Shown: positions 5,530 through 38,000 of the stretch, in pieces
How the letters are laid out: the number at the start of each line of letters is the position of its first letter
How positions within the stretch are numbered: position 1 is the stretch's first letter
Origin: Mobula hypostoma
Lineage: Eukaryota
NCBI RefSeq assembly: GCF_963921235.1
Contig: NC_086097.1
Coordinates: 47,928,001-47,992,000, forward strand
Reading direction: 5' to 3'
Length of the DNA: 64,000 bases
The notes under the pieces: generated by a model
What the model was told of the DNA's origin: nothing
The model's database searches: none
What the model saw: only the letters and a program-made list of their open reading frames with translations
Program-made: the position numbers and the translations under genes

Positions 5530-5633
5530 ACACAAAATTCTGCAGGAAATCAGCAGGCCAGGCAGTACCTATGGAAAAGAGGGAACAGTTGACGTTTAGG
5601 GCCGAGACCCAGATGATGCTTCTCTTGTTTGTG
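5530..5633 (-). mobile_element. Tiny PLE 3'-end insertion with inverted tail remnant and 14-bp TSD
   Basis: aagctaaacaaagt (5516-5529) / aaactaaacaaagt (5634-5647); interior matches the PLE 3' terminus. Confidence 0.7.
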
Positions 5634-9789: not shown

Positions 9790-10190
9790 TTATTTGTCAC
9801 ATTTAAGTGAAATGCATTGTGTGCGTCAAATCAGATCAGCGATAATTGGGCAGTCCGCTATTCTAGCGCCAACATAGCACGTAGACAACTGAAGAGCAAA
9901 TCTGAAGATCCTGGAAATTAAAGCAACACACACAAAATGCTGGAAGAACTCGGCAGGCCAGGCAGCATCTATGGAAAAGAGTAAACAATCGATCTCGGCC
10001 CGAAACGTCGAATGTTTTATTCTTTTCCACATCCACAACTCACTAGCCATAACTGTACGTCTTTGAAATGTGGGAGGAAACCGGAGCACCCGGAAGAAAC
10101 CCACACGGTTACAGGGAAAACCGGCAGCGACAAGAATCCTGACCTGACGCTGTGAAGTGTCGCGTTAACCGCTACGCTGCCGTGCCGCTT
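9790..10190 (-). mobile_element. HE1/V-type tRNA SINE carrying a nested inverted PLE-end insert (~9891-10030)
   Basis: gtgggaggaaaccggagcacccggaagaaacccac V-domain; A-box head gcggcacggcagcgtagcggttaacgcg on the minus strand. Confidence 0.75.
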
Positions 10191-10251: not shown

Positions 10252-10389
10252 AATGCACACAAAATGCTGGAGGAACTCAGCAGGTCAGACATCATCGATA
10301 AAAATGAATAAACAGTTGACATTTCGGGTCCTGATGAGGGGTCTCGGCTCGAAATGTCAAGTATTCATTATCTGCAGAATCTCGTGTGT
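10252..10389. mobile_element. Mini inverted PLE-end insertion with hammerhead core and 15-bp TSD
   Basis: TSD ttgtctttctggtgc (10237-10251) / ttgtctttccgatgc (10390-10404); inverted ttgacatttcg / cgaaatgtcaa; core CTGATGA-GGGGTCTCGGCTC-GAAA-T-GTC at 10331-10358. Confidence 0.75.
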
Positions 10390-10772: not shown

Positions 10773-11046
10773 ATGGCGGAGACCGATGTCGTGCGAAGCT
10801 CGGCTTCGAGTTGTAGCATTTTGTCGCTCTCCAGCGCGCTGTCGAACACCCGGCTCGACTTGCTGGAGTCGGAGTGCTCCCCCAGCACCCTCAGCGGCTT
10901 GCAGATGTCTCGACCGGCTTCTAGCAGCCGGCTGCGCCGAAGCAGCTCCCGCAGCTACAGCGTGGAATCAGCGGACAGCCCAACCGAGGTTCGAGTGCTG
11001 GTGATAAACACCGGAGGAACTATTGGCATGATGTACCGAAATAATG
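10773..11046 (+). CDS. ASPG: ASPG coding exon 1
   Basis: ATG at 10773; [10 protein letters not shown]...[17 protein letters not shown]; donor G|gtgagt, phase 1. The start codon is less certain than the 3' boundary. Confidence 0.88.
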
Positions 11047-14000: not shown

Positions 14001-17000
14001 TCCTGGAGAAAAAATAAATAAAAAGAAAAGGATATTGCAAAGAAAAACCCCAAAAAAACTAAAAAAAAGTAATGACTAAACTCAAACAAAAAAAGCAAAC
14101 AGAACAAAACAAGGCTGAACCAATATATTAGATCGAATACATTCATTAATGTCGTCAACTCTGCTCCTCTATTTGTATATTCTAAGTTAATAAAAAGGAT
14201 TCGGAAAAGGTCAGACTACATCATATGAAAATGTTGAAAAAATGGCTTCCAAGTCTCTTCAAATTTAACCGAAGGATCAAGAATGACACTTCTGATTTTT
14301 TTTCTAAATTTAAACATGATATGGTTTGGGAAAACCATTGAAATGTATTGGGGGGGGGGGGTTAGTCTCTTTCCAATTCAATAAAATAGATCTTCTGGCC
14401 ATTAGTGTAACAAATGCGATCATCCGACAGGCTGAAGAGGACAAAGATCTATGTTCCATCATTGGCAAATCAAAAATTGCTGTAATAGGATGGGGTTGTA
14501 AATCAAAACGCAAAACTGTTGAAATAATATCAAAATATCTTTCCACAATTTTTCTCAGAGAGGGCAGGACCAGAACATATGAGTCAACGAAGCCACCTCA
14601 GAATGGCTTCTGTCACAAGTAGGATTTATATGGGAGTAAAAACGAGCTAGTTTATCTTTAGACATGCGGGCCCTATGCACTACCTTAAATTGTATCAGCG
14701 TATGTTTAGCACACATAGAGGAAGGGCTAACTAATTGAAAGATTTTTTTCTCATTTCTCTATAGGTAGGCCAAGTTGAACTTTCCTTTCCCATTCATTTT
14801 TAATTTTATCAGATATACCTGGCTGTATTTTCATAATTGTATCATAAATGGTGGCTATTAATCCCTTCTGATAAGGATTTAAACCTAAAATGTCTGATAT
14901 CTAATAGTGTGTGAAATCAGAAAGGTAGGCAGTGTGGTATTTAAAAAGTTTTGTGTGTGTGTATGTATATGTATGTGTATGTATGTATGTAATTATTAGT
15001 TATCTAATCAATATAACTTGCCCAGATCATATTTTTTATATATATAAAAAAATATGATCTGGGCAAGTTATATTGATTAGATAACTGTTCAAAAGACATG
15101 AAACAGTTATTCAGAAATAAATTACGGAAACATGTTATACCCTTCATTTTCCATATCAAAAAGGCTTGATCCATAACTGAGGGTTGGAAAAAAATTAGAT
15201 ATAATAGGGCTTTAATATGAATTTGTTCAAACCAAAAAATTTACGAAATTGGAACTATATTCCTAATGTATGCTTAATTATTGGATTAACCAATTGTTTA
15301 TTCAATTTAGAAAATACAAAGGGAAGTGACGTTCCTAAAATAGCAACCAATGAAAACGCTTGTACAGAGTAACTTTTGAGGTTTACCCATTGTGGACTTG
15401 GAATTATATCCCAATCTTATGTCCAAAATATTAACTATCGAATAGTAATTGCCCAGTAATAGAATCTTAAATTTGGCATTGCTAAACCACCATCTTTCTT
15501 GGACTTCTGTAAATATCTTTTATTTAACCTGGGATTTTTATTCTGCCATATATAAGAGGAAATCTTAGAATCAATAGTATCAAAAAAAAGATTTAGGAAT
15601 AAAAATTGGTACTGCTTGAAATAAATATAAAAATTTAGGTAAAATCATTTTAATGGCGTTGATTTGGCCAATCAGTGATAGAGACAATGGGGACCATTTA
15701 GTGAGCAATTGTTTAACCTGACTAATTAACGGTGAAAAATTGAGCTTGAATAGGTCCTTATGTCTCTTAGCAATTTTAACCCCCAAATAAGTAAAATAGT
15801 AATCAATCTGAATGGGGATATTAGAGGAAGGTTTTTTGGGGATAATAGAGGAAGGTTTTTTACTCAGAGAGTGGTTGGTGCGTGGAATGCACTGCCTGAG
15901 TCAGTGGTGGAGGCAGATACACTAGTGAAGTTTAAGAGATTACTAGACAGGTATATGGAGGAATCTAAGGTGGGGGCTTATATGGGAGGCAGGGTTTGAG
16001 GGTCGGCACAACATTGTGGGCTGAAGGGCCTGTACTGTGCTGTACTATTCTATGTTCTATCTATAAATGGGAACCTGCATATTGAATGGAAAAAGTTCAC
16101 TCTTACCAAGATTAAATTTGTAACCAGAAAAACTACTAAACTGAGCATGTAAAGATAATACTGCCGGAATGGATTTCTCAGGGTTAGAAATACGTAATAG
16201 TAAATCATCTGCATATAGTGATAATTTATGTATCTCATTACCACGGGTAATACCAAATATATTAGGAGAGTCACAAATAGCAATTGCTAACGGTTCCAGG
16301 GCAATATCGAATAATAATGGACTAAGAGGGCAACCCTGCCTAGTACCACGGAATAACTGAAAAAAGGGAGACTTTGATTATTGGTAAATACCGAAGCCAA
16401 AGGAGTAAGGTATATCAATTTAATCCAAGATATAAATATTGGACTGAAATTAAATTTCTCAAGCGTATTAAACAAATATGTCCATTGGACTCTATCAAAA
16501 GCTTTCTCAGCGTCCAATGAGATGACGTACTCTGGAGTTCTAGGTAAAGAAGTATAAACAATATTCATTAATCTCCTAATATTAAAGAGTAATGATTTCT
16601 AATAAATCCAGTCTGATCAACAGAAATAATTTGAGGTAATACATTCTCCAATCTTGTTGCCAATATTTTAGAAAAAATTTTAGAATCCTCATTCAGCAAA
16701 GATATAGGCCTGTAAGATGCACATTCAGTAGGATCCTTATCTTTTTTAAGAATTGGGGAAATAGAAGCTTGATTAAAAAGATTGAGGTAATTTACCTATA
16801 GATGCTGCATCCCTAAAGGTTCTATGTAACCAAGGAGAAAGTATAGTAGAGAAGGATTTTAAAAATTCTACTGTAAAACGGTCTGGACCAGGTGCTTTAC
16901 CTGAATTCATTGAAGAAATAGCATTTTTTATTTCTTCTACCATAATAGGTACATCTAGTTTTATACGTTCATTGGGTGGTAATTTTGGAATATTCAATTT

Positions 17001-20000
17001 CTTTAAAAATTTGTGCATTAAAGTGGAGTCATCAGAAAATTCTGATTGGTATAGAGAGGTATAAAATTCTTGAAAGGATTTGTTTATCTCATCATGATCA
17101 ACCGTTAGAGTACCATCTTTTTTACGAACCTTAACAATCTGGCATTTAACCGAAGCTGATTTCAGTTGATTAGCCAGTAGTTTCCCAGTTTTATCACCAT
17201 GTATATAGAATTGACCCCTAGTTTTAATTAATTGATTTTCAATCGAAGATGATAGTAATAGACTATGTTCCATTTGAAGTTCGACTCTCTCTTTAAAAAG
17301 CTCCTGATTAGGAGTAATAGAGTATTTCTTCTTGATTTCTTTGATCTTGCCAACCAGCTTAAGTATTTCATCATTATTTCGCTTTTTCAGTCCAGCAGAA
17401 TATGAAATAATTTGTCCACAAATATATGCTTTAAAAGTGTCCCATAGTACCCCACTGGAAATTTTTACATCTCCTTGTGATGTATCAGTTTCAAGACATT
17501 TTAACTTCAACTTTTCTAGTATTTCTGTTAAACTTTTCTTTTCCTCAGTCACTCTGGGCCCTTGATTCTCTGCATTTCTAGGACTGTTCTTCAATGGCTC
17601 CTTGCATATTTCCTTGGAAGTAAGTGGATGATTACATTGATTAACCAGTGGTGCAGATGGATTGTTAGCTCTTGTATTAGGAGGAATGCTGTATAACAAG
17701 AGTTATACAGCATTTAGGGAAACTCTGTTAAACCACACCTGTTCCTGGAACAATGCTGCCCATACTAGTTAGGAATGCACAGGAACATTCCCTTCAGCAC
17801 ACATTATGCCAAACTAATTAGATTATGATTAAATGTCTAAGCACACCTATCCCTTCTGCCTTCACAATGGTCATATCCTTCAATTTCCTGCATCTTTGTG
17901 CCTACCTAAGGGCCCCTTAAATGCCTCTATTGTATTTGCCTCCACTATTGCACTTGACATTGTGCTGCAGATACCAGCCACTCCTTGTATTTAAAAAAAA
18001 ATGTATCTTACCCAATCAATCTCCTTTCATCTTGGTTTCTCACCTTAAACGTATTTCCTCTAGTATTAGACATTTCAACCCAGTGGGGGGGGGGGGTGGG
18101 ATGTACTAGCTGCCCACTCTATCTAAGCTTCTATAATTTTATAAACTTCTAACCAGTCTCAACCACTGTTTTTGGGGAAAACAACCAACGTTTTTCTAAC
18201 CTCTCCCAGTGTCCTATAATGCAGGCAGCATCCCTGTAAACCTCTGCATCAATTTCAAAGCCCCTATATCCTTAATTGAATGTAATAATATAGGGGTGGC
18301 CCAACTAGAGATTTATAAAGCTGCAATGTAATTTCTCAACTCTTAAACTTGATGCCTCAACATCACTCAAGATGGTGATATTGGCATGGGGGAATTTCGA
18401 TCTGGAACTAACCCTTCTATAGCTGTTTAAACTTAGAAGATTAATAGTGATTTGGTTGAAGTATTTAAGAAAGGAAGTGGAACTGGTAGAGTAGAAAGGC
18501 CACTCATAATTGAGGCATCTACTTGTGGAATAAGTAGGCAGTTTCCAAAAGAACTACTCCATTTTAGTACCTTCTATGCGCAATAGATGGCAGAACTTCT
18601 GAAATCTCTTTAAAAGCCAGTTGATGCCATGGTAAATGCAGATTTTAAAATCTGAGATTGATAACTTTTGTTAAACACAAATGCTGAGGAATATTGAGCA
18701 AATGCACGTGCAGAGGCTACATAGGTTAGGGAAGAGGTGACATACTGAAACCTAATTTTATACAATTTCTGCCTCATAATGTTTTGTGAGCCTTGCAAAT
18801 AATATCAAGGTGTTCCATGGTGTTCCTGAACAACTAGATAGAGTATGTTTCATTAGTTTTTACCTATAAAATATTGAAACTCTTAGTGGACATGGAGAGG
18901 ATATTTCCTATAGTGGGAGAATCTAGGACCAGAGAGCACAGCTTCAGAATAGAAGGACATCCCTTTAGAACAGATGAAGAATTTCTTTAGCCAAGGGGAT
19001 GGTGAATTTGTGGAATTATTGCCACAGCTGACTATGGAGGCCAAATGATTGGATATATTTAAAGCAGAGTTTGATAGGTTCTTGATTAGTAAAGACATTA
19101 AAGGTTATAGAACATGGAAATCTACAGCACATTACAGGCCCTTCGGCCCACAATGTTGTTACTTTGGAAACTGCCTAGAATTTCCCTACCCCATAGCCAC
19201 CGATTTAACTAAGCTCCATGTACTTGTCTAAAGGTCTCTTAAAAGACCTTATTGTATCCGCCTGTACCACTGTCGCTGGCAGTACATTCTACCACTCTGT
19301 GTGGGGAAGAACTTGGCTCTGACACCCCCCTTGTATCTACTTCTAAGCACCTTAAAACTATGCCCCCTCGTGTTAGCCATTTCAGCCCTGGGGCGGCGGG
19401 GGGGGGGAAAACCTCTGACTATCCACACGATCAATGCCTCTCATACCTCTATCAGGTCACCTCTTATCCTCCGTCACTCCAAGGAGAAAAGACCAAGTTC
19501 ACTCAACCTAATCTCATAAGGCATACTTACTCCAATCCTGGCAACATCTTTGTAAATCTCCTCTGCACTCTGTAGTATCCACTTTCTGCCTGTAGTGAGG
19601 TGAGCAGAAGGCCGAACGGGGCTGTGAGGGGTAATAAGGCAATAAAGTGATGGTCCAAAGGAACTAATTCTGCTCCAGTGTCTTTCGGTTTAATTTAGTA
19701 ATGGGTAGTTCTAGGGTGAACACAAGATATTTAAAGGAAGGCAAATATTGTCTAAAAACTGTGCAAGGTAATATCAAATGAGAAGCTATTAAAAAAAACA
19801 ATAGAAGCATAATGCAGTATTAAAATAAAATAACATACATCAAAGTTGCTGGTGAACACAGCAGGCCAAGCAGCATCTGTAGGAAGAGGTGCAGTCGACA
19901 TTTCAGGCCGAGACCCTTCGACCAGTCTCAGCCTGAAACGTCGACTGCACCTCTTCCTACAGATGCTGCTTGGCCTGCTGCGTTCACCAGCAACTTTGAT

Positions 20001-23000
20001 GTATGTTGCTTGAATTTCCAGCATCTGCAGAATTCCTGTTGTTTGCGTTAAAATAAAATAAACTAGGTGAAGCTCAACTCTTTCACAGTTTTTGTTAATC
20101 TGGTTTTGTATTCACTTGCCTAACTATTGATGAGACCCAAAACCAGGAGATGGAACAAAGCTGGAACTCGAGCTAAACCCTTGTTCAGTAAAACCACACA
20201 ACTACAAAACTACAAAAACAACTACAGAAGTCAAACTCATCCCAATGAATGACTATTTGAATGGTTTATCTAAGAGCGTTCGAGGCATTGATACGATCAA
20301 TAACCATCAGTGAAAGTCAGCCTAGAATTAGTTGTCAGCTGAGCAATAAACAATGGTGGTTTTGGTTTGCTGTAACACCTTCCTTTTGAATGTGGTTACC
20401 TGCAGGATTTGAGCCTGGGGTTGATGCGGGTTAGAACAGCTGGTGATCAGTCCTTTGTTAGTGGTCCCAGGCTGTTACTTCCTTGTCGCAATGTTGCTTA
20501 TGGCTATACTGGCACTAGTGGATGGTTCAGTCGGGGTAGATTGAACCCTTCCAGGAGGAGATAAAGGTTCAGCTCTGTCTCTGCTGATCTGCCTGATTTC
20601 AGATCTCCCTCGTGTTTGCCTGATTAACTTGTTGGGCCTTTAGGAGTAGATGGCCACAACAGGCTGATGTGGCAATACCAGCAATTTCTGTCTATGATAA
20701 ATCTGTAGAGCAATTTAACCATTCGTTTGACAATCTAACCTGGTGTCCAGGAGTCCATTACAATACTGTCTGTCCTGAAGTGCAGCTCAAGACATGAATG
20801 ACTTCACCCTTCGACCAAGATCAGAATGGTTCCTTTTGTGCACCTGTCCATCTGTCTCGGATGTTGGACACTATCAGTATTGTATCCAACACCGTGTGGA
20901 GTTTTATTCCCAAAAGCACTTTGGCTGCAGCTCCCCACAGGCTTGGATGTGGTGTAGCTCAGTATGTCAACAGAAATGTGTTGAGAGCTTCGGTTGATGC
21001 TCCTTCCCCTTTTGATTTCAGAAGTGACTGAAAGTATCCACAACCTCTCTGCTTGGCTGTTGGACTGTGGAGTGAGGGGATGTGGATAACTCTGTTCTGG
21101 GACAATGTGGCAAACTGCTGTGAACTGAATTGAGTGCCATTGTCAGAAACAAGTGTTTCTGGCATGCAAAGCAGTTGACGATCTGCTACAACTGTTGAAT
21201 AGCAGCGTCTGTCATTGTTGATTTCATAGGTAATACATCTGGCCATTTCAAATGGGTATCATTCAGGCCAAGGTCGGGACACCTGTTGACTGGATCATTC
21301 TTGTCAACATGTGCTCTACTCCATGGGCTAGTAGCCTGAAGTTCTGGCTGTGGATCGGCTCTACTCGGGTTCTTTGCTGCCACAGAGCACTGAGAATGGT
21401 GCTTGCACATGTATGTACCTTCTCTGCCTATCGTCTGAAATGTGTGCCAAGCATCTCCAAACATGTCCACAGTTGAATAATGTATTAGGTTGGTAGAAGG
21501 CTATGACCTTTTCCTCAAACTTGACTAGCCATCCTTCAATGAAGTATCGGGAAATGTGCTGAAGAAGCGGATCTGCAGCTATTTCTGCTCTGATCTTGTC
21601 AACCGTGACCAGAAGATCTTCAATGGCATCTGATACAAACTGGTGGACTTCACAATCAATTAAAATCGCTCCCCATCTCTGATCTCCACAAGGCAGCTCT
21701 CCGGACCTAGCATAGCATTGGAGCCTTTGATCGATTTCCAAACTGTATATCACAGGCTCCAACAGTTTCTGTAACACAAACAAGACAAAGAACAAGCAGA
21801 AGGCGGAAAGTAGTGACCATCATTCAATTTTACGAATAAATTTGCCAAAACTGGTAATGAGTGCTGGTGTGTCTCTAAAGCTAAATTAAGATCAGTTGAG
21901 AAGGCAGCAGATGGTCTCATAGTACCATTGGCTTTCTTGATGATCACTATTGGAGCTGCTCAATGTGAGTAGTTGACAGCTTTTTATCACACCAGCTTGC
22001 GGTACGTGATCTAGCTCTTGCTCCATGATTGGTAAGGCTGTGTATGATACCGATGTTTTGGGACAGAAGACTGGCTTTGCCTCAGGACGGAAATGGAGTT
22101 TTGCTTGCCGTTTGGTGCAGCAACCTAAACCTTGAAACATTTACTGCCTAGTGCTGTTGCTGTTGTATGGTGTCAAGTACTGATCGTAGAATGGCATGAA
22201 CTGACTTGAGCTGAATTGCCAATGTCTTCATAGAGACTTCATCTAGAGGGATGCTCCAGAGATTAAGCTTGTCTATCTAGTGAGTTTGGATCAGGCTGCT
22301 TTGTTGGGTAACACGCACAGTTCACTTAGTTACCATTCAGCTTCCCCATGAGGTTCAGTTCACCAGTCAGTAGGAGGGTTTCACCCGGTTAAACTGCACA
22401 TGGAATGATGAGTTGATTTGACTGGTGTGGACCTGAGAGCTTGCCATGTGTGTTTAGAAATGACGGTGATGTCTGATGCCATATTGAGTTGTAGTTGATA
22501 AATAAACACATTGATGTAATGCCTCCTGGGGATGAAATCAACTTTGAACATGACCATTAAATTCACTGTAGATTTTCGTGGTTTTTGAAACTTCCTGAAC
22601 TTGTATTTTACTGGCGTAGATGACAGTGGAGGATGGCAAATGCTCCCTGTGTGACCATAAAATTGGTATTTGCTGCAAGTATTTCTTGTATTGGCAGTTT
22701 CTTCCATGATGCCATGCACCACAGTTCTGGCAAGCTGTGTTTATCTGCTTGGAGATGTGCGTGATGTCTGGGCCATTAGACACTGCATTGACCCTGGTCT
22801 GTTTGACCAGGTTGGAATCGTGTTTCAGGTTGATCAAATGCTGACATTCTTGAGTGGCAGCTTGAAGAGTCATACCAGCGTCTTGCTCCCGTCTGGCCAG
22901 GAGCTGTTGCAAATGCCTGCATTGCCTGGTGCCTGAAATCCACAAATAAAAATCAGACTCTTGAACTGCGATTCAGTCATGTTACCCAGCTTGAGCTTTT

Positions 23001-26000
23001 CACACTTGTGATTGATGATACCTGAATATGTAACAAACTCATTGGCATCATGCTTAACGAGTTTTGGGCTTTGGTAGCAAACACCGAAGAGATGACTATT
23101 CTCCAAAAATGCTTGTTAGCTATCAGACAGTTCCATCACATAAGTCGCACATGTTCTTGGGCAGAATTAATTTGAAATAATGCTCGTGTACAGCTGTACA
23201 CAATTTTCAGAGCAAAATCCACGTCTTGCACAACGCAACTTGGTTGCGTTCAAACGCAACTCTCGAAGCAGCATCAAACTGAAAATTGGTATGGACGCAG
23301 CAACTGAATCATCTGAATTCTGTCCAGTGTTTGACATCAATGTCATTGGACTCACTGATAATCAAAACCTTAATGAGCAAGTTAACTTCAGCTGGGCTAC
23401 CTCAAATTGAGTTTGCCTCTGTTGTATTGTGGCTAAGCCTTGCTGAAATTGCCATGTCGATATAATACAACACTTCACAGCCAATTTTGTGTTTGCTCAC
23501 CTGTTACTAATGAAACCCAAAGCCAGGATTAGAGCAGAACCAGAACTCAAAATAAACCCTTATTCAGTAAGACCACCCAGGTTTCAACTCAAAAGTACGT
23601 ACCAAAGCAGGACTATTTAAATGGTTTATCCAAGGCCCTTGGATGTTGAGAGGAATGAGGACCAATCAATGAAAGTCAGCCTGGGATTGGTTATCAGCTA
23701 AGTCCAGTCATTGGTTGTTTCAGCTCGCCATAACAGATTTTTAGCAGAAATTGTTCATTTTTGACTCCAGGAAAAAGTTGGTTGGCATCCCATTCTCAGA
23801 ATGCAACCCATATACAGACATCCCACCTCTCCTGGAAGTTCCGGAAGTCTCCCGCATATTGATAGTGGCTCCCTGACGCCCGGAAATTATATACAATATC
23901 CCGGAAATCGATTTTTATTCCCCCCCCCCCCCGAGAGGGAGAGTGAGCATCCTGATAGGTCTACTTAGCACGAGGAGAGACCAGTCAGTTTTCTCTGTGT
24001 ATGGACTTTACAGTCGACCTCAAAAATGATGAGTTTTGTCCGCTGCACTGTTTGCAACAGTGACTTTTCTATTGCCCATGGTGGGTTAAAATGTAAAAGA
24101 CATTGAGGTGAGTTTAACAGGTGTCATTTGTTCATTAGCATAGCTGATGTTATTTAAACTAGCTGGCTAGTTGCTAAGGAGCTACTCTATTGATGTCCTA
24201 CATGATGAGGCCAAACTCCCTGTAGACTTGCTTAAAGTTGTAATAGAATAAACATGATAATATAAGTACATATTTTCATGTAACATTTTCTGCATATACC
24301 CAATTTGGTTTACAGATTAGACAAAATCACAAAATTATTACATACACCCTTGGAGGTCGACCAGGGGGTGGGGGAGAGGGGGAATATGGGGTTGCGGGGG
24401 GGGGGGGGTTGCAAGGATTCTATCTCCCTGAAATGGTGGTGCTACTTCCCTGAAATGAGTTTTTGCAGGGTGGATGTCTGTATATATAATTTAATGACAG
24501 GCAATTTAAGCAAGCCATCGAAGATTTTATTGAAAGGTGTGTTAGTTTTAATGAAGCTTTCTTTTGTTTGCCATGCTATAACCTGCCAGGGTTATATTTT
24601 TAGGGATTTGTATTCAGGATTTTCAGGATTAATTGTATAAGATGCAAAAGCTATAAAAAGCCATATCTAGTTAAGGTGGTTTAAATATAACCTCGACCTT
24701 GAAATGTTGTATGATTGTTTTCATGCATCTTAAAATTCATGTGAAATCAAAAGGTTAAATAGAGTAATTTTTGTTAGTGGGGCTTTAGAGTTATTCCAGG
24801 AACTTGCCTAATTATGTCTGGGGGCATTTGATCCTGTGCCAATCTGTTTTTGCGCATCGTTCACATTGCACATGACTGCCTCTCAGTAATGCAATGGGCC
24901 AAGTAGAGTTACAACTCCAGGTGTGTAAAATCTAATCTTCTTGTGATATACAACTAAAATTCTTATGGCCCTTTATTTCCACATCCTGGAAAAGGTTTCA
25001 CTGTTAATGTAATGGTCTCTCTCTGTACAGAAGCAGTGTTTGTGTTATGGTTAGAGATAACTGGTGCTTTGGAATGTGAGCTGTCCAATCAGGGGAGTGG
25101 GTATTTGTGCATCTGACACTGGTCTGAGGTGAAGAGAGAAGACACTGCAGAGAACTAGTAGGATTCGACCTGGTGGGGTCCTTGATTCGCTGGAGCACTA
25201 CTGAGGATCGGTGAATATGATTTTCAGAAGAGTTGACTCCAACTTATGCACATTTGACTGTTTCATTATAATGAGCCCTGTTTTTTTTTTCCCTTTACTA
25301 ACCCATAACATCCATTAAATATTTCTTCAATCATATGCAGTGTGCTATCTGTTATTTCTTGGCACAGAGATATAACAGGGTAACAAATCACACAGCATTC
25401 ATATAAACCAGGATTTGGGGTGGGAGAGCCATCCCATTCTCATGGATTTACTGGGACCGGAGTGTGTATTCCCGAGATGTACCCGTATCAAGGAAACCAG
25501 AGTTTGATCAATATTTCCTGAACACTGATCAGTTAGGCTACTTTGTATATAACTATGAAGGCAGCCTCTCCAGTTCTCCAGACTTGCTGGGTTCTTTCTC
25601 TCCTTTTTCTCTACCATTTTATTATTGTAACCTGTAAGGTGATTTGAATCAAATATGTCTCCTGGACTAGAGAAAGCAAGATTTCCCGGTGGCCACACAT
25701 TTTAATTCCACGTCCCATTCCCATTCTGATACGTCCATCCACGGCCGCCTCTACTGTCAGGATGAAGCTACACTCAGGTTGGAGGAACAGCACCTTATAT
25801 TCCGTCTGGGTAGCCTCCAACCTGATGGCATGAATATTGACTTCTCTAACTTCTGTTAATGCCCCCCTCCCCTCACACCCCATGCCTTATTTATTTAATA
25901 TATATTTCCCTCCCTTCTCTTTTTTTTCTCCTTCTGTCCCTCTCACTATAACTCCTTGCCTGCTCTCCATCCTCTGGGCTCCCCTCCCCCTTCTTTCTCC

Positions 26001-29000
26001 CCAGGCTTCCTGTCCCATGATCCTCTCCCTTCTCCAGCTCTTAGCTGTATTCCCCCCCCCCCGTCTTCTCCTATCATTTTGGATTTCCCCCTCCCCCTCC
26101 CACTTTCAAATCTCTTACTATCTCTTCTTTCAGTTAGTCCTGACGAGGGGTCCTGGCCTGAAACATTGACTGTACCTCTTCCTATAGATGCCGCCTGGCC
26201 TGCTGCGTTCCACCAGCAATTTTTGTGTGTCACCTAGACCGTTTCTTTCGAGCCCATGTAGGGATGTCAAATGTGTTCACCCCTGGTCAACAGCTCAGTT
26301 TAGGAAATCCCCACATGAATCTAAATTAATTCACAATTTGTGCTTAACTTGTGTGTTTAATTATGTAAACATAATGTTGACTCCAGACCATCAAGTTGGA
26401 TTCAAAATGTTGCTATTCCTTTTGTAGCAGTCATCACCAAAAACACACTTAAATCTACAGTAACACGAGGAATTCTGCAGATGCTGGAAATTCAAGCAAC
26501 ACACATCAAAGTTGCTGGTGAACGCAGCAGGCCAGGCGGCATCTCTAGGAAGAGGTACAGTTGACGTTTCGGACTGAGACCCTTCGTCAGGACTAACTGA
26601 AGGAAGAGCTAGTAAGAGATTTGAGAGGGGGAGGGGGAGATCCAAAATGATAGGAGAAGACAGGAGGGGGAGGGATGGAGCCAAGAGTTGGACAGGTGAT
26701 TGGCAAAAGGGATATGAGAGGATCATGGGACAGGAGGTCCGGGGAGAAAGACAAGGGGGAGGGGAGGAAACCCAGAGGATGGGCAAGGGGTATAGTCAGA
26801 GGGACAGAGGGAGAAAAAGGAGAGAGAGAGAGAAAGAATGTGTGTATATAAATAATGGATGGGGTACGAGGGAAAGTGGGACATTAGCGGAAGTTAGAGA
26901 AGTCAATGTTCATGCCATCAGGTTGGAGACTACCCAGACAGAATATAAGGTGTTCTTCCTCCAACCTGAGTGTGGCTTCATCTTTACATAGAGGAGGCCG
27001 TGGATAATTCCACATCCCTTTCCCATTCTGACATGTCTATCCATGGCCTCCTCTACTGTCAAGAGGAAGCCACACTCAGGTTGGAGGAACAACATCTTAT
27101 ATTCTGTCTGGGTCGCCTCCAACCCGATGGCATGAACATTGACTTCTCTAACTTCTGCTAATGCCCCACCTACCCCTCGTACCCCATCCGTTATTTATTT
27201 ATACACACACATTCTTTCTCTCTCTCTCCTTTTTCTCCCTCTGTCCCTCTGACTATACCCCTTGCCCATCCTCTGGGTTCCCCCCCCCACTTTCCTTCTC
27301 CCTGGGCCTCCCGTCCCATGATCCTCTCATATCCCTTTTGCCAATCAACTGTCCAGCTCTTGGCTCCATCCCTCCTCCTCCTGTCTTCTCCTATCATTTT
27401 GGATCTCCCCCTCTCCCTCCCACTTTCAAATCTCTTACTAACTCTTCCTTCAGTTAGTCCTGACGAAGGGTCTCGGCCTGAAACGTCGACTGTACCTCTT
27501 CCTAGAGATGCTGCTGCCTGGCCTGCTGCATTCACCAGCAACTTTGATGTGTGTTGCTTAACTCTACAGTATTGAAATAGGGAATCTCCAGTTGCTCAAG
27601 TGATTGAACTATCTTCTCTCTGTTTTGGGCATGGGGTCTTCTTTACAACAGTTTGTCTTCAGAATTCTTGCTGAACTACACCCAAAATACTTCATTCTTA
27701 TACACATCAGCTCTGTGTTGTCATGCTTTGATTCCGTTGGACTTGTGTGAGCCTTTCATTGGTTTTGTCCCAAGGCAACAGAAAGGAGAAGAGCAATAAA
27801 GTAATGCTAAGTAACTATTTGCCTCTGTCATTCCCTTGCTTCTCTTTGAGTCAGGGCAATTCTAATCGGTTACAATCAGTACGGGCCAAGCACTGGGCAC
27901 TCAGGTTAATTTAATTCCAATACTACTGCCTTTCCTTACACTACAGTTCTCTTCCCAAAGAGCAGTTCATAAGCAATGTATTTGGAAATAATCTCTGATT
28001 TAGCAGCATTAGTAGGGACTTCACTCTGTTCACTTTCAGTTGTTCTGATCCAGCCATTCCTGAGCAGAGATACTACATGAAACATTTCACAAAATGGTTG
28101 CACGTGCAGGCTTTCAAAATGGCAGCCTTCATTTTTCTTACCAATTGGCAACAGCAAAGACATTTGTCTACTTCCACTGTCCTGGATGTACGAGGAGTGA
28201 TTGATAAGTTTGTGACCTAAGGTAGAAGGAGTCAATTTTAGAAAACCTAGCACACTTATTTTTCAACATTGTCCCCTCCTACATTTACACACTTAGTCCA
28301 GCAGTCGTGGAGCATACAGATCTCTTCTTTGTAGAAGTTGTCATCTTGGACCTCCAGAAAGTGGTCCACAGCAGGGGTAATTGATAAGTTCGTGGCCTAA
28401 GGTAGAAGGAGATGAGTTACACAGCTCTCGTTACATGCACATGCAGGTCAACTCTGAGTGATTATGCAGAAAGTTTGAAGTTAATAACCCATCTCTTTTT
28501 ACTTTAGGCCATGAACTTATCAATCGCCCCTGCTGTGGACCCCCTTTTGGAGGTCCAAGACACCGACTTCTACAAAGAAGGGATCTGTATGCTCTACGAC
28601 CGCTGGACTAAGCGTGTAAATGTAGGAGGGGACTATGTTGAAAAATAAATGTGCTAGGTTTTCTAAAATTGACTCCTACCTTATGCCATGAACTTATCAA
28701 TCACCCGTATTCCAGTTGGCTTTTACAGATTGTAATTTCTTCATGGCCTACAGTTCAAAATTGTCAAAGAAAATCAAAGAAAAACAATGTGTCAACCTGA
28801 AAACGCTATTAACAATTGTTTTGATAAGGTGGTTCTGTTTGTCAGACACTAATTATCTCAGCCTTCTGGAGTTCCTCAGGTATATTCCTCTTCATTTGTT
28901 GCCTTGGAATTAACCATCTTTCTTTCGTTTATCGTTAGTACTGGCACCAAAAGAAAATGCTTTTATCAGTGCTCTTCGAAAACAACCGGGCTTACATGAT

Positions 29001-32000
29001 GAAGATTACGCTATAAAAACCAGGCTTTATGAATGTGATGTACCAGAAAATACTCTGGTGCTTCCGTAAGTAATTATTTATATGTCTAATTTAAATTTTA
29101 GGAAATGCTGATCTATAGAAACGTGGATAACAAATTGAAACTCTAGGCTCAGCAATGTTGGATGGATTTCTATTAACTTGGACCACTATGGTGCAAGTAG
29201 CCATTTCACAATACTCCATCACGAGATGTTTAGTTCCCCTTCCTAGGAGTTTAATGTGAAATATGGGCTGATACTTTAATGTAATATTGCTGGTGTTGGC
29301 AAACATTAATGGAGATTAAAAACATAACCATTATTGCAAAGTAGGAAATCTGGATGCCAGTTTCTGTAAATAGCAGTGATAATGAAGAGATAATCAGATT
29401 TTGGGTATTGCAATAAAATAGATATTTTCCAAGACCATGGGGATAATGTCACTGCTGTTCTAAAGGTTGGTTTTCATGTCCACTGTGACCATGGGACTGT
29501 GGGTTAAAGTCTCATCTGAAATTCAGAATCTGCAGTGGTAGTGCACAATCTCAGTACTATATTGAGAGTGTCAGCTTAAGTGTTTGGGCTCAATTTGCTA
29601 GAGTGGGACTTTATGCATAATCTTTTGACTGTAATGTGAAAGACCTAATAAGTAAGCCATAGCTCACTAAATTAAGTCTTGTGTCTGCAGCCAGTAAAAC
29701 ATTTATTTTAAAAGAAAACCTGCATGTGTGTGTACACTTGGTGGCCACTTTAATTATAAAAGAGTGGAACCCAGTGGTCTTCTGATGCCGTAGCCCATCC
29801 ACTTCAAGGTTTGAAATGTTGTACGTTTGGAAATGCTCTTCTGCCCAAAACGGTTGTAACGTGGTTATTTGAATTACTGTTGTCCTTCTGTCAGCTTGAA
29901 CCAGCCTGGCCATTCTCCTCTGATCTCTCTCATGTGGGGTGCTTTTGCCCACAGAGCTGCGGCTCACTGGATATTTTTCTTTTCTGTACCCTTCTCTGTA
30001 AACTCTAAGGGACTGTGTGAGAAAATCCCAGGGGATAAGCCGTTTCTGAGATGCACAAACCACCCCATCTGGCACCAACGATCATTTCCACGGTCAAGGT
30101 CACTTAGATTACATTTCTTCCCCATTTCTGATGTTTGGTCTGAAAAACTGAACCTCTTGACCATGTCTGCATGCTTTTATGCGTTGAGTTGTTGCCCCAT
30201 GATTGGCTGATTTAGATATTTGTATTAATGCGCAAGTATACCTAATAATGTGGCCATTTGAGTGTATATATTTCGCCCTGTTCTGCCCAACAGTTTAATT
30301 CAGTCTGTGTCTCAAATTCAAATAAGTCAATTTTTTTCTTTTCCATTTGTAACCACATTTTGCTTCACTACTGTTTGCAAAGCAAAACACAGCACTTCTT
30401 TGTATCTGTGACTGGAAAATACTTGTTCAGAGCTGACCTAGGATTTGTGCTTCCTTCTCAAGTGAGCCAGGAACCCATAGTCTTTGACTTAAAGTCAAAA
30501 GTACTGCCTACAGCTGACAGAAGGAAATATCCATTAAGTGTTCATGCTTTGGGTGAATCATTGTACATTAAGGTGATTCTTTGTTAAAAATGCACAGAAT
30601 TCTTTTAATGTTCTGGCGCGTATTCACTCAGCTTCCATCCCCAGAAATGGAATTAGGCAGTCGTTCCTGGTTTTGACACGGCCACAACTTCATTAACCCC
30701 AGGCAAAGCAAAATCCTGCAGTTTCCTCGACATTTTCACGTTATGCATTTTCTATGCAAAGAATACATTCTTCCTAATTAGAAGGTGGCTTTTGGTATCG
30801 CCTAGTCCAGGGTGCCTTAAAGGAGGGCAAATTAGTATGCAACCTTCAACCTTAGCTGGCCGTTGAACTCCATACAGTGCTTTCTCTGATCATATTGCTT
30901 TTACTGCATAAACAGCTATATAAATCATGATGACCATCTTGTTTCGAGAGATTATCTTGCATACATACCAATCAAATTCCAAGTTGGCTTAACAGAGCTG
31001 TGTCAGGTTATTGTCAAAACATTTGAATGTGACTGAAATTTAAAGTGCTTTCTCATTTATCACCAGGGCATATTAGTTTTCAATCTTGATGCCAAAGAAA
31101 GTATGCTAATCCACAGGGCACACATCAAATTCCAAATGGGGCAGAATTTGATTTGTGCTTCTAGGAAGGTTCCCTAAATTGGTATTAAATAGTCCAATTT
31201 GACTTGAAGGCCGTACTGGCGCTGACATGGCCAAGTGATTAACCAGTGGAGAAACAATGGAAAATGGTGATTAGTTTTAAGATGACTGTGAATAAGGACA
31301 CGTATGGATCTTGCGCAAGATTATTAAGTTAGGGCAAGGAAAATTAAGAGCTCTAGGGAGAATTAATCAGAAGTAGCTGGCTTTGAGCAATTCAAGGATA
31401 AAGGAGGAAATGTGCTGAGAGAGTGGGGTCCTGAATGAGCATTTTGCATTGATATTAGTCAAAGAGGACATCAAAGTTCAGAGTAAATTTATTATCAAAG
31501 TACTGTACATATGTCTGTATATCCTACCCTGAGATTCATTTTATTCCAGGCGTTCGCAGTAGAATCAATGAAAGCTCGTCTGTCAAACAATGTTCAAAAG
31601 AAGTCGATCTGTGTAAGATGGGGAAAAAACCCAATAATGATTTTTTTTAAGTAAATAATATTGGGAAAACTTTGTAGAGATCTTGAAAGTGAGTCCGTAG
31701 GTTGTGGAATGGGTTCAGAGTTGAGCTGAGTGTGTGTGGTGGACAGAGATCAGAGCTAATACACTAGGGCATTTTGAGATGGATAAAGAGGGAGTGTTGC
31801 ATTTCTTAGACAATGTTAAGTGAGTCAGATGTTTGCTGTATGCCCAGGTAATTGTATGCAAGTACAATGGGAAATCCTGCAGCAGCATCACAGGTATATC
31901 GCATCATATAAGCAACATTCACAGGAAAATAAGTTAAATGTTTAATCACTGTTTTGACAAACAGCACAGTTACAACTAAGTTCAAAGTGGTCATCGAGTT

Positions 32001-35000
32001 TGTTAAACTAGTGGTGATTAAGGTTTTGCTGGTTAGTTCAAGAACTGAATGCTTGATGAGCACTAGCAGTTCATGAACGTGGTGGTGAAGGATTGTTCTT
32101 CTCTCCCTCCTGCAAAAAAAAAAGTCATGGCCAGGATGGTGGGGATCTTTGGATATTGCTTTGAGGCATTGCCTTCTGTAGATGCTTCTGATGGTGGAAA
32201 AGGGATTCTTGTATTCCTGCAATTTGAAGTGCTATTCCAGATCATGATGCAACCAGTCAGTATTTGGTGACAAACCGAGCCTCTATCTCCTCCTGGGCTG
32301 GTGCACTTTCCTTGTGATTCGAATCTATGTGCTGGTCCGGCTCAAATGAGCTACCATGGATTTAAAGCTGACTCCAGACTGCTTGTTTTTCCCCAGAGCA
32401 GTCTGGTCCTGATGGGATATACCCCAGGTTATTGAGAGATTTCTGGGACCTTGACCAACACCTTTCTTTCCTTTGATGTCAGGCTGAGTCCCGGAAGACT
32501 GGCAACTACCTAATGCTGTCTAAAGCAAGAAGGGAAATGGGGAATAATCCTGGGAAATACTGTCCTTACATTAGAGGTATTTGGGGGTGGTGGGCAGCAT
32601 ATAGTGTAGTGACACTCACAACACGCTGGAGGAACTCAGCAGGTCGGGTAGCATCCGTGGAAACGATCAGTCAGCGTTTTGGGCCGGAACCCTTCAGGAC
32701 TGAAGAGGGAAGGGGCAGAGGCCCTATAAAGGAGGTGGGGGGAGGGTGGGAAGGAGAAGGCTGGTAGGTTCCAGGTGAAGAACTAGTAAGCAGAAAGATA
32801 AGGGGTGGGGGAAGGGAAGCAGGGAGGGGATAGGCAGGAAAGGTGAAGAAAGAATAGGGGAAAACACAATAGGTAGTAGAAGGAGGCGGAACCATAAGGG
32901 AGGTGATAGACAGCTGGGGGAGGGGGCAGAGTGACATAGGGATAGAGGAAGGGAGGGGGAGGGAATTATCAGAAGTTGGAGAATTCAATGTTCATACCAA
33001 GGGCTGGAGACTACCCAGATGGTATATGAGATGTTGCTCCTCCAACCTGGGTTTAGCCTCATCATGGCAGTAGAGGAGGCCGTGTACGGATATATCTGAA
33101 TGGGAGTTGGAAGCAGAGTTGATGTGGGTGGCTACTGGGAGATCCTGTCTGCTGTGGCGGACGGAGTGGAGGTGCTCGACGAAGCAGTCCCCCAATCTAC
33201 GTCGGGTTTCACCGATGTAGAGGAGGGAGCACCGGATGCAATCGATGACCCCAACAGACTCTCAAGTGAAGTGTTGCCTCACCTGGAAGGACTGTTTGGG
33301 GCCCTGAATGGTGGCAAGAGAGGAGGTGTAGGGGCAGGTGTAGCACTTGTGCTTACAGGGATAAGTGCCAGGTGGGAGATCCATGTGGAGTGATGTGTGG
33401 ACCAGGGAGTTGCGGAGGGAACGATCCCTGTGGAAAGCGGAGAGGGGTGGAGAGGGAAAGGTGTGCTTAGTGGTGGGGTCCTGTTGAAGGTGGCGGAAGT
33501 TGCGGAGGATAATGTGCTGGATCCGGAGGCTGGTGGGGTGGTAGGTGAAGACAAGGGGAACTCTGGCCCTGTTGTGGTGGTGGGAGGATGGGGTGAGGGC
33601 CGAAGTGCGGGAAATAGAGGAGATGCAGGTGAGGGCATCATTGATAACGGCAGAAGGGAAACCACGATCCTTAAAGAAAGAGGACATTTGAGATGTCCTG
33701 GAATGGAAAGCCTCATCCTGGGAGCAGATGCAGTGGAGACAGAGGAACTAGGAATAGGGAATGGCATTTTTGCATGTGGCAGGGTGGGAAGAGGTATAGT
33801 CGAGGTAGTTATGAGAGTCAGTGGGCTTGTAGAAGATGTCAGTGGACAGTCTGTCTCCAGAGATGGAGACCGAGAGGTCGAGAAAGGGGAGAGAAGTGTC
33901 TGAGATAGACCAAGTGAATTTGAGGGCTGGGTGGAAGTTTGAAGTAAAGTCGATGAAATTAATGAGCTCAGCATGGATGCAGGAAGCAGCACCAATGTAG
34001 TCATCAATGCAGTGAAGGAAAAGTTGGGGAGCAGTACCAGTATAGGTTTGGAGCATAGACTGTTCCACATAACCGACGAATAGGCAGGCATAGCTGGGGC
34101 CCATGCGAGTGCCCATAGCTGCACCCTTGGTCTGAAGAAAGTGGGAAGAGCCAAAAGAGAAATTATTAAGTGTGAGTACCAGTTCCACCAACTGGAGGAG
34201 GGTAGTGGTGATGGGGAACTGGAACTGTCCAGAAAGTAGCGGAGGGCTTTGAGGCCTTCTTGATGGGGAATGGAGGTGTATAAGGATTGGACGTCCATAG
34301 TGAAAATGAAGCGGTCGGGACCGGGGAACTGGAAGTTATTGAAGAGGTGGAGGGCATGGGATGTATCCCGGATGTAGGTGGGGAGGGACTGAACTATGGG
34401 TGACAAAATGGAGTCCAGGTAGGCAGATACAAGTTTGGTGGAGCAGGCAGAAACTATGGGTCTACTGGGACAGTCAGGCTTGTGGATCTTGGGGAGGAGG
34501 TAAAACTGAGCCGTGCGGGGTGTGGGAATTGTGAGTTTATCGGCTGAGGATGAAAGGTCTCAGGAGTTGATGAGTGTTGCTTTGACCCCAGCATCTGCAG
34601 AATATTTTGAATAGTGTAGTGATTAGCACAACGATTTACAGTACCAGTGACGCATGTTCAATTCCTGCTACTGTCTGTAAGTAGTTTGTATGTTCTCCCT
34701 GTGATTGTGTGGTTTCCTCCAGGTGCTCTGGTTTCTTTTCACAGGTCATTGTAAATTGTCCCATGGTTAGACTTGGGTTGCTGGGCAGCATGGCTTGAAG
34801 GGCTCATTCCGTGTGGTATCTCAATAAGTAATAAGTTGGAGAGGATTCTTAGTGACAGGATTTATTAGAATTTGGGAAAACATTGCCTTAAGGACAGTTA
34901 GTGTGGCTTTATGTGTGGCAGGCTCTATCTTGCTAACTTGATTTGAGTTTTTCAAGGATGTGGTGAAGATGATTGAGGTTAGTGCAGTGGATGTTGTCTG

Positions 35001-38000
35001 TATGGATTTTAGTAAGGTGTTTAACATGGTCGCACTAGGTCAGTTCATCCTGGAGATTAAGTTGCATTTGATCTGCAGTGACTTTGCCATTTGGATCTGA
35101 GATTGGCTTGCCAGAGAGAACGCAGGGTGGTCATGGTCATGGTTAATGGGACTTGTTCTGGCTGGTATTCCAGTAGAACTACTAGGACTTGATGTTTCAA
35201 TCCCTATGGTAAGTTGGCACTCTCGATGTTGGCAGTGGGTTTGGAGTGGTGACAAGGAGGGAGGGTAGGTACGTCATCGGGGTCATCAGGTGGGCACCCT
35301 CCTCCTTTGACGTTTCGTTGATAAGCCCACGATGTCTCCAGAGGGTTCAACGCTGCTACCTGGTGTCCCAGATACACCCCCCCCCAGTTCCATACCCTCC
35401 TGTCTTCATCTCGCAGCCCAGTTGTTCTCTTTCCTTTTAATCCAAATCCAATTGCTGTGTTCTTCTGCTGCATTTGACAAGGATTTGGTTGCTTGTTGGA
35501 GGGAGTGACCCCTCACCCCCATCTTCTTCAATAGACTGGTCGTAGATGTAGCAACGAGTCCCCTGCATCCCACTTCTACAGGGAAAATCTTGGTCTTCCT
35601 GCCATTCCAGGCAGCTTCAGTTGTCAGTTCAGAGTACTTGGTCTTTTCCCTCTCATAAGCTTCTTCAACACCATCTTCCCATGGTACTGTCAATTTCACA
35701 ACATATGCCAGCTTGGCTGTTGTGGACCACAGGACCATGTCTGGCCAGAGTGTTGTAGCCGCAATGTCTGGGGGAAACACAAGCTTTTTCCAAGTCCACG
35801 TCCATTTTCCAATCCTGAGCAACCTCCAGAATGCTTACACCTTTTGAAGTTGTGTGGTGCTCTGGAGGTTGACATATAATTGACTTGGATAGAAATGTAG
35901 CTTGGGTTATTGAATCCACAAATGATACAGGTTTGTAGTGTTGTAGGTAGTTTAAAAGATTGCTAAAATGTAGAGCAGGGTTTAGATCAGTTGCAGATAT
36001 AGGATGGAGAAATCACAAGTGGAGTTTAATGTGGTCAAGTGTGAGGTATCAGTTTGATAGACCTAATGTAGAGTGAAAGTACGCAGTTATTGGCAAGACC
36101 CTTAATAGTGTGGATGTAGAGGGATCTCGGTGTCCAAGTTCATAGCTTCCTGAAGGTGGCTGTGTAGGTTGATATGTTGATAAAGTATGGTATACTTTAT
36201 TATATTTTAAGCATTGAGTTCAAGAGTCAATAAGTTGCATTGCAGCTTTGTGAAACTCTGGTCAGGTTGCATCAGAAGGGATTAGTTTAAGTTGGTATTT
36301 ACTTACTAGTTTAATAGCATGGCACAACATGAGCTGAGTTTCTTCTCCTGTGTATCATCAATGAATCATTATAGAGCGCATATATTTGTTAGAAATGAAG
36401 TATTGGTGTTTGTTTTGCAGTTGTACAAGGTCAAACAAAAGGATTGTGTACTCAGTAATTGAATATTCACCTTTGCTGGACTCCTGTAACATGACCACAG
36501 ATGACTGGGCTAAAATTGCTCTTGATATAGAGGTAAGTTGAGACTTGAGTCGGGTATTTCAGAGAATTTTATAGGACCAATAAGTAGCAGAGGTTTAAAA
36601 TTCCTGCATTGAGGGAATGATTGTCTTGGGGCAGATCTCTTGCTGTCTGACAGGAATTTGGCTCAAAACCTGGATCTGATCAGTTTCTGCTGTTTAAGCT
36701 CTGAGTGGGCTTTCTCTCCAAAACTGATGAAGTTATAGCCGCACAAAGGTAACCTAGTCTTGGGTCAGATTGCCTTTAGTCAGTAGAAAGCTGGTATTAT
36801 TGGGATTGCGGTTTTATTTTTGTATGGTGTTGGCTTAAAACCACTTAATATTTGCAGACTTAAGTACTGATGTATCCTGCTTTTCTGTTCCATTTTCAAC
36901 TTAAGTGGACATAATTCAACATACAATGATTCTGATTTGGGATTCTTGATTGACACAACAGGAACTGATGCAGGAGTGTTCCTTCAAGTTATCAGAACTG
37001 TTTCCTCTTAAATAATTTGTTATCATAGCATTAAGCTCATCAGTTTCCTGGTTTAAAAACAAAATCAGTGTGTTAACAGTTTAGTACTAGAAATGGCATG
37101 GAATTTCCTGGATGATTTGTTTAACATTTTCAAAGCTCTAAGGTAGTATTAAAAGTTATAAAATCATACATTGCTGTTGTTGGTCAATATTGCTGTCAAG
37201 AGCTTTGAATGTACCAGTAAATTTGCGAACGAGCTTGGGTTTCCAAATTTCCATTGAACACTTTGGACTATGAAGTGTTGGAGATTTCATCATTCCTGTA
37301 CACTGGCCAGTGATATTGAAGGGTGGGGACAAATTAGACTTCAGAAAATCCTGCTTTGTATCAGATTAAAACACTTCAAGTGGGTAACATCAAGCACTCT
37401 AATTTCCTGTGCTAGTTCTGTCACTGCCCTTTCAGCAGCATGATAGGAATGATTCAAAATGCCTGGCATATAGAATAGAAGATATAAGTGAGATTTACAC
37501 TGTTGAGGTGAAATTTGATATGTCTGTTCCTCACAAATCAACTTGCAAGCCATAGATCGGAAGCCAGTCTCATAGCTCTGCAGTTTTCTAAGCTTTGTTT
37601 TCTTTTTGTGTATTGCCAGGCTCGCTACCAAGAATACAGTGGCTTTGTGATTCTTCATGGAACAGATACCATGGCTTACACTGCTTCTGCCCTTTCATTC
37701 ATGTGTGAGAATCAAGGAAAGCCCATCATCCTGACTGGTTCACAAGTAAGTTGTAGTGAGTCAGATCTTTACAAGGAAAGATGGTGATTTAGATTTCGCG
37801 TACTATGTTAAGAACAGTACTCCTGGAATTTGTATAGGTCTTTAAAAGGTATACAGTAGATAGAAATTGTTTAGTTCCTGTAGGCTTCTGACTTGGTTTA
37901 ATTTTCAAGTGCCACCTTTATTAACATCCAAGGACACACCTTGTATTGGAAGAACAAACAGGTAGGCAGGGTGGGCTGGATCAGTTGATAAGAAATTAAA

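Follow-up and report, generated by a model that had tools for sequence, protein, structure and literature searches.

The minimal hammerhead motif at positions 27456-27491 on the forward strand of the window (the whole 64,000-nt stretch of DNA analysed here) is best read as the terminal-repeat ribozyme of a Penelope-like element (PLE), carried as a passive passenger and, according to RNA folding predictions, locked within its own fold-back insertion. We put the probability of this reading at about 0.85. PLE minimal hammerheads are an already known kind of ribozyme, and the 27456 copy is an ordinary leftover of it. A preliminary description of the window had given the letters of the motif exactly as we find them, with the core intact, and its predicted cleavage after C27487 agrees with our placement of the C17 position at 27487. 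The motif, its parts, and its leader are listed below.

27456-27491, + strand: minimal type I hammerhead motif (from sequence, fold energies, and family variation)
27456-27459 / 27488-27491, + strand: helix I, 4 bp
27460-27466, + strand: CUGACGA core box (from sequence)
27467, + strand: bulged A, an extra base preceding helix II
27468-27471 / 27476-27479, + strand: helix II (from fold energies)
27480-27483, + strand: GAAA core box (from sequence)
27483-27486, + strand: ACGU palindrome, all that remains of helix III (from sequence)
27485-27487, + strand: GUC cleavage triplet, of NUH form (from sequence)
27436-27459, + strand: pyrimidine-rich leader, with TACTAAC at 27436-27442 and AG at 27452-27453 and 27456-27457

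In the leader, TACTAAC resembles a branch point, and A27452 and A27456, the positions equivalent to the enriched 5' ends of the family (see below), lie in initiator-like contexts. A stem II is present as had been described, but in place of the 3-bp register (-4.6 kcal/mol) a 4-bp register is preferred (-6.0 kcal/mol), consisting of G.U, G-C, G-C, and U.G pairs after the bulged A27467. The 10.1-11.1 pair is G.U in the 27456 copy and in 35 of 36 protein-anchored copies of its subfamily, A, and G-C in subfamily B, where the C at 11.1 (21 of 22 copies) backs the 4-bp register with the bulged A; moreover, the fourth pair is U-A rather than U.G in 483 copies. G10.1-C11.1 is highly conserved in PLE minimal hammerheads, yet not invariant. 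The architecture of this class, to which the motif had been likened, was found throughout (core, helices I and II, and the 15.2-16.2 palindrome), while the closed helix III of canonical full hammerheads is absent from 27456-27491. An Rfam search of the window at E<=5 returned no hammerhead family among 15 matches, and its miRNA matches were hairpin-driven and below the gathering score.

The minimal hammerheads of PLEs described by Cervera and De la Pena (2014, PMC4209133) are alike in their core, loopless helix III, palindromic 15.2-16.2 positions, extra base between 9 and 10.1, 4-bp helix I, and location in a terminal repeat. They are also alike in occurring mostly as single dispersed copies, with pairs either about 3 kb apart around an ORF or close together on opposite strands. 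Two features differ: helix II has 4 bp here versus 7-8 in the Schistosoma family, and the G10.1-C11.1 pair is G.U in this subfamily (PMC4209133). Judged by its sequence, therefore, the motif belongs to the PLE minimal hammerheads on all features examined except the G.U at 10.1-11.1.

The PLE origin that had been proposed for the motif is borne out by a full-length relative elsewhere in the genome (L080), which has the organisation pLTR-ORF-pLTR and an RT-GIY-YIG ORF (1,043 codons open between stops) flanked by two sense hammerheads 3,516 nt apart. This arrangement likewise backs the earlier suggestion that such hammerheads need to act as dimers. The L080 copy is preceded by an inverted truncated copy, and its ATG lies just past the end of the long tail, ~135 nt beyond the cut site. 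Upstream of the 27456 motif is the end of the GIY-YIG ORF. Homologues of the element protein (n=668) carry RT and GIY-YIG Pfam domains, with PF00078 (RT) on most of them, and the best named homologue is from bamboo shark (71%), which suggests that the genome probably belongs to a cartilaginous fish; the ORFs of L080 and a second copy, L079, themselves match GIY-YIG at E 0.001, under the curated cut-off. The protein has a DKG motif and, in the window copy at 3-788 as well as in L079 and L080, a CX4CxxC linker before the GIY-YIG domain. A CX2-5CxxC linker before the endonuclease is a mark of the Neptune and Nematis clades (PMC8557442). By these sequence features the element is an endonuclease-positive PLE with a linker of the Neptune/Nematis type.

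Genome-wide (3.48 Gb, 200 contigs), a 34-nt hammerhead pattern has 45,753 exact matches, divided 22,850/22,903 between the assembly strands. A looser descriptor, which provides the count of cores that the preliminary description had called for, fits 86,221 sites; the reversed control gave 0 in both cases. This number is about ten times the largest in PMC4209133 (about 9,000, in Xenopus), although the descriptors differ. Open frames of 900-1,054 codons persist in several copies, and identical scores are common, so that the family is young and possibly still active. In several rarer minimal-hammerhead families of the genome, the core and the ACGT palindrome are unchanged but helix II, of 6-7 bp, has an unrelated sequence; a search for divergent helix II sequences in this setting gave 2,117 matches versus 1,078 in the control, so that half are background.

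The immediate setting of the motif is a composite one. The copies at 26559 (-) and 27456 (+) are the two arms of one head-to-head insertion, spanning 26449-27571:

26449-26462, no strand: left target-site duplication, 14 bp, one mismatch against the right copy
26463-27006, - strand: left (antisense) arm, which includes a hammerhead (26559-26594) and carries the long tail (+133); identity to the right arm 90%
27005-27557, + strand: right (sense) arm, with the end of the PLE ORF (stop at 27159-27161), 3' UTR, hammerhead, and short tail to ~+100 from the hammerhead start
27558-27571, no strand: right target-site duplication, 14 bp

The 14-bp target duplication, together with the alignment of the arms, which join at a TA microhomology (27005-27006), points to a single insertion event. 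The 3' ends of the family fall into two groups, at ~+97 and ~+134 from the hammerhead start, giving a tail difference of 37 nt. Every head-to-head pair examined combines a short with a long tail, in 17/17 pairs and then in a further 12/12 (29/29 in total), where raw alignment ends alone gave 26/29 and the remaining 3 were assigned by means of the target duplication. These three are the 27456 locus, where the alignment had extended into the duplication (leaving 16 of the 17 scored automatically), and two of the further 12. The loci concerned, in the window and elsewhere in the genome, had been picked by pattern or protein, neither randomly nor by tail. Target duplications of 9-16 bp were found in 15 of 17 head-to-head pairs, the other two reaching the edges of their loci, and an inverted partner lies within 1.5 kb at 9 of 29 pattern-anchored loci, which is a rough share in a non-random sample.

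We infer that fold-back pairs originate by two-strand priming driven by a protein dimer. The element protein would nick both DNA strands ~14 bp apart and prime a cDNA on each, one beginning at the proximal start site and the other at the distal site, both of them downstream of the uncut hammerhead. Self-priming on an antisense template has been proposed as an alternative for such inversions (PMC3846280). PLEs are known for inverted copies and for tails at a single end (PMC8557442, PMC3846280), and two RT starts as well as extension of both strands have been demonstrated for PAc, a Poseidon element of Anolis (Frangieh et al. 2024, PMC11167929). In PAc, the two RT starts downstream of the hammerhead define the tail, the template is uncut RNA, and both DNA strands are nicked and extended, all of which resembles what we find. 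PAc belongs to another clade, however, and its ORF starts within the hammerhead, whereas here the ATG is ~135 nt past the cut site (PMC11167929).

The units described for Neptune and Nematis PLEs (Craig et al. 2021, PMC8557442; Arkhipova et al. 2013, PMC3846280) share with ours a single RT-then-GIY-YIG ORF with DKG and CX2-5CxxC motifs, a partial tandem pLTR, an adjoining inverted and 5'-truncated copy, and a target duplication. Their tail of 30-40 bp, often present at one end only, compares with 37 nt here; the one-tailed state was found in 29/29 pairs in this family, and target duplications are 8-10 bp in the rotifer examples versus mostly 12-16 bp here (PMC8557442, PMC3846280).

The insertion lies in a host gene, and the motif is on the sense strand of intron 1, as had been stated beforehand:

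10773-11046, + strand: coding exon 1 of the ASPG-like gene, with its ATG at 10773
28939-29065, + strand: exon 2 of the ASPG-like gene, intron 1 being 11047-28938
36421-36532, + strand: exon 3 of the ASPG-like gene

A Pfam search of the window placed an asparaginase domain (PF00710) above cut-off at 37599-37760. The predicted product is ASPG-like; the name is carried over from the preliminary description, and this is one of two such genes, the second type I asparaginase-like gene being located on contig C18 at 10.30-10.32 Mb. Just upstream of exon 2, at 28190-28710, there are repeated and apparently inverted segments of ~40 nt, possibly a relic of a small DNA transposon.

The same description had proposed that the 27456 copy, once transcribed, could cut ASPG pre-mRNA in company with a second copy. 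The predicted structure of the insertion speaks against this, since the antisense arm precedes the 27456 hammerhead in the transcript and is predicted to pair with it. The fold of 26449-27573 has a predicted energy of -958 kcal/mol, and in the minimum-energy structure 35 of the 36 hammerhead bases pair with 26559-26594. The modelled probability of helix I is 4e-38 within the whole insertion and 0.0005 in the right arm alone. Predicted duplex energies are -952 kcal/mol between the arms (495 nt) and -786 kcal/mol between the older copy at 25.7 kb and the antisense arm (448 nt), compared with -9.5 kcal/mol for a double hammerhead and -3.7 kcal/mol for a heterodimer with the 26136 copy, which has one mismatch in helix III; all of these folds are equilibrium models of RNA without proteins. 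In the pre-mRNA, the antisense arm would thus form a hairpin of ~500 bp over the hammerhead, preventing its fold and its cleavage, and intron 1 would then be spliced out normally.

Cleavage of ASPG pre-mRNA at 27487, lowering or rerouting expression, would require a partner either in cis, with the 26136 copy as enzyme strand, or in trans. The 27456 copy itself has an intact core, triplet, and helix I, the 26136 copy retains an intact enzyme half and helix I strand sufficient for the heterodimer, and trans partners are potentially plentiful among the 86,221 descriptor sites. The only nearby sense partner, 26136, is however complementary to the same antisense arm as the 27456 copy. That arm is predicted to win by hundreds of kcal/mol, and with one of the two sense copies always sequestered the cis route would be removed. 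The antisense arm could pair with the older copy before synthesis of the right arm, to which it would then bind more stably; were it to stay on the older copy, this kinetic trap could free the 27456 copy for a trans partner. A cut inside an intron could still be spliced around. In published work, activity is low or depends on protein: animal minimal hammerheads were inactive as monomers and weakly active as dimers (PMC4209133), and the PAc hammerhead cleaved only with the protein of the element, RNA-seq in that study showing no ends at its cut site (PMC11167929). Because the antisense arm is made first and would pair over the hammerhead, we consider cutting of ASPG RNA very unlikely. Contigs from four sequencing runs, which are only guessed to be RNA, contain many pieces of the family, with no pile-up of ends and with the unique part of the intron almost uncovered; this reading does not rely on them. 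No host selection is visible: copies are even between assembly strands, which are not the same as orientation to genes, and the gene itself holds both orientations. In our reading, the role of the motif is in the RNA of the element itself, where two sense copies flank the 3.5-kb unit and can pair by way of the ACGU palindrome into a weak double hammerhead; published work suggests that the element protein probably assists.

Further copies in the window place the insertion within a resident family, the principal ones being:

3-1220, + strand: longer family copy, with the ORF from the RT thumb to the GIY-YIG end (3-788), 3' UTR, hammerhead at 1081-1116, and long tail
19820-20061, no strand: smaller second head-to-head insertion in intron 1, with an exact 14-bp target duplication and both arms ending inside the hammerhead
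25703-26230, + strand: older, separate sense fragment of the same PLE family, 82% identical, with a hammerhead at 26136-26171

The four related cores reported previously are all present, with 1 mismatch (1081-1116, +), 8 mismatches (10327-10362, +), 5 mismatches (26136-26171, +), and 4 mismatches (26559-26594, -) to the 27456 motif. Helix I is broken in the 10327 copy, which lies ~450 nt upstream of the ATG at 10773. The 26136-26171 copy had been described as mutated in the triplet, but AUU still fits NUH; its core is intact, and the damage is in the palindrome, with ACAU replacing ACGU. Decayed copies were recovered at 32669-32704 (-), 56257-56292 (+), and ~55380 (-), while the one reported near 44490 (+) is, by eye, a plausible but heavily decayed relic. 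Three further places complement that earlier list, at 19893-19928 (-)/19911-19946 (+), 9978-10013 (+), and 5587-5622 (-). At <=14 mismatches the window has 11 matches, versus 0-2 in each of 20 shuffled windows, and with the genome-wide reversed control at 0 this indicates that the hammerhead family in the window is not due to chance.

Other repeats were seen alongside these copies. Just upstream of the first coding exon, small and older head-to-head junctions of the hammerhead-bearing repeat itself occur at 9892-10013 and 10310-10362. Intron 2 contains a 2-kb fragment of a second PLE subfamily at 32600-34559 (-), with an ORF ~77% identical and a deletion in its hammerhead core. A near-perfect hairpin of 91 nt with an AT centre, at 14997-15087, is probably a small inverted-repeat element, its Rfam miRNA matches being below the gathering score. 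Broken reverse-transcriptase-like frames at 15580-17702 (-), 47884-48695, and 54120-54881 (-) represent other retroelements, LINE-like by eye.

The preliminary description would have given up its proposal had the core been no better conserved than the neighbouring UTR. Core positions are in fact less variable than the flank, with variants per site of 0.58% and 1.4%, respectively. When any base is allowed at five sites of the core and one of helix I, the baseline of 45,507 exact 35-mers grows by 3.5%, and a second set of core sites adds 3.2%, versus 8.5% for six non-CpG flank sites, an excess that may be concentrated at a few subfamily sites. A first non-core control (+18.6% versus +3.2% for the core) was discarded, as trimmed terminal Ns had allowed 5'-truncated copies and other subfamilies to inflate it. 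Between subfamilies A and B the hammerhead is identical at 32 of 36 positions, while the UTR alignment is at shuffle level (0.51 versus 0.53), and the catalytic positions are the least variable. The constraint on the core, together with the A/B and other-family pattern, is consistent with selection acting on source elements, inserted copies then decaying, and not with host selection.

The 5' ends of copies indicate where templates begin. We counted them genome-wide as abrupt stops of the match (three consecutive non-matching bases), the patterns not being individually normalised. By position from the hammerhead start, the counts were 138 at -10, 453 at -4, 1,842 at 0, 697 at +2, 280 at +28, 487 at +32 (the cut), 182 at +33, and 242 at +36. 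Ends are thus most frequent where helix I begins (1,842 versus 138-280 at controls), with a lesser peak 4 nt upstream. The excess at the cut site is weak, 1.7-2.7-fold over its neighbours, and 39 of 100 listed cut-site matches are explicable by microhomology or small deletion (CAG 15, CCT 13, CGA 7, and CGT 4, counted by hand). With the main peak 32 nt upstream of the cut, most templates appear to be uncut RNA that starts at the ribozyme.

These distributions bear on whether the motif is still a ribozyme even for the element, or is retained purely as a promoter or protein-binding sequence. In favour of the latter, the dominant subfamily has G.U for G-C at 10.1-11.1, inserted copies retain an uncut motif with 5' ends that peak upstream of the cut, and catalytic mutants had no effect on insertion in vitro (PMC11167929). 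Mere binding would leave the concentration of low variability at catalytic positions to be accounted for, as well as the unrelated helix II sequences that other families combine with this core and ACGT and the excess of 5' ends at the cut site itself, and we regard loss of ribozyme function as unlikely.

At the helix I peak, transcription could start, reverse transcription could stop, or a 3' splice site could be used. We favour a transcription start, since both enriched A's lie in contexts that are presumably initiator-like. A pyrimidine tract ending in YAG adjoins helix I in three subfamilies, including the leader at 27436-27457 and the copies at 55380 and 56257, and branch-point-like words occur in two; the tract may represent a conserved 3' splice site. 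The Penelope intron of D. virilis terminates at helix I (PMC4209133, PMC2377424). Among 20 sampled position-0 matches, 12 adjoin an inverted arm and 1 adjoins the duplication; 2 belong to other subfamilies, and 5, with no duplication within 170 nt, were left unassigned. These 20 showed no upstream sequence in common and none that resembles an exon, leaving splicing unsupported as the cause of the peak. In 5 of them, the start follows an additional GA.

A host effect through RNA structure or splicing may be considered on the same evidence, with the hairpin serving as a substrate for A-to-I editing or small RNAs, or with 27436-27457 as a cryptic 3' splice site. The predicted hairpin is long, with arms 90% complementary, and both the YAG-ending tract shared by three subfamilies (even though the A and B UTRs align at shuffle level) and the D. 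virilis intron (PMC4209133) would suit a splice site. The leader at 27436-27457 is itself inside the hairpin, however, similar insertions number in the tens of thousands and imply no special role, and of the 20 sampled copies that begin at helix I, 13 are directly adjoined by the other arm or the target duplication, with no foreign exon. We consider such an effect highly improbable.

As a tentative joint reading, which we would back at clearly less than even odds, the RNA of the element would start mainly at the initiator-like A that opens helix I and to a lesser extent 4 nt upstream of it, and the ribozyme would form the 5' end of the transcript, removing the cap plus 32 nt from a minority of molecules. 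A protein dimer would prime both strands, always combining a proximal start on one strand with a distal start on the second, giving insertions that are often self-locking. A search of the main text of openly available papers yielded nothing on the hammerheads of this shark/ray family or on the helix I 5'-end peak; both may be touched on in supplementary data to PMC4209133 and PMC11167929.

Intronic hammerheads of RECK and CTCL, regarded as domesticated in amniotes, are reportedly conserved single-copy motifs. The 27456 copy is similar to them in its location in a host intron; they are drawn with tertiary contacts (PMC6155905), whereas it is a young repeat copy that has no helix III and is predicted to be hairpin-locked. 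Animal non-LTR retrozymes (Li et al. 2026, bioRxiv 10.64898/2026.07.22.740005) are similar in having type I hammerheads related to PLE terminal repeats; as described there, they are non-coding tandem arrays whose units each contain a hammerhead, in contrast to the inverted, ORF-bearing PLE fragment found here, which has no tandem array.

The host gene is probably unaffected: near-identical leftovers number in the tens of thousands, and this one should, by prediction, be held in a hairpin. The family, as a young and very large sample, is useful for retroelement biology, where the role of PLE hammerheads is at issue, their activity having been low and dispensable for insertion in vitro in published work. 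Concrete predictions for the biology of the element follow from the helix I 5'-end peak, from the weak surplus of ends at the cut, and from the strict pairing of short and long tails. If the joint reading is true, fold-back insertions often lock their own ribozyme, which would help the genome to tolerate tens of thousands of intact cores.
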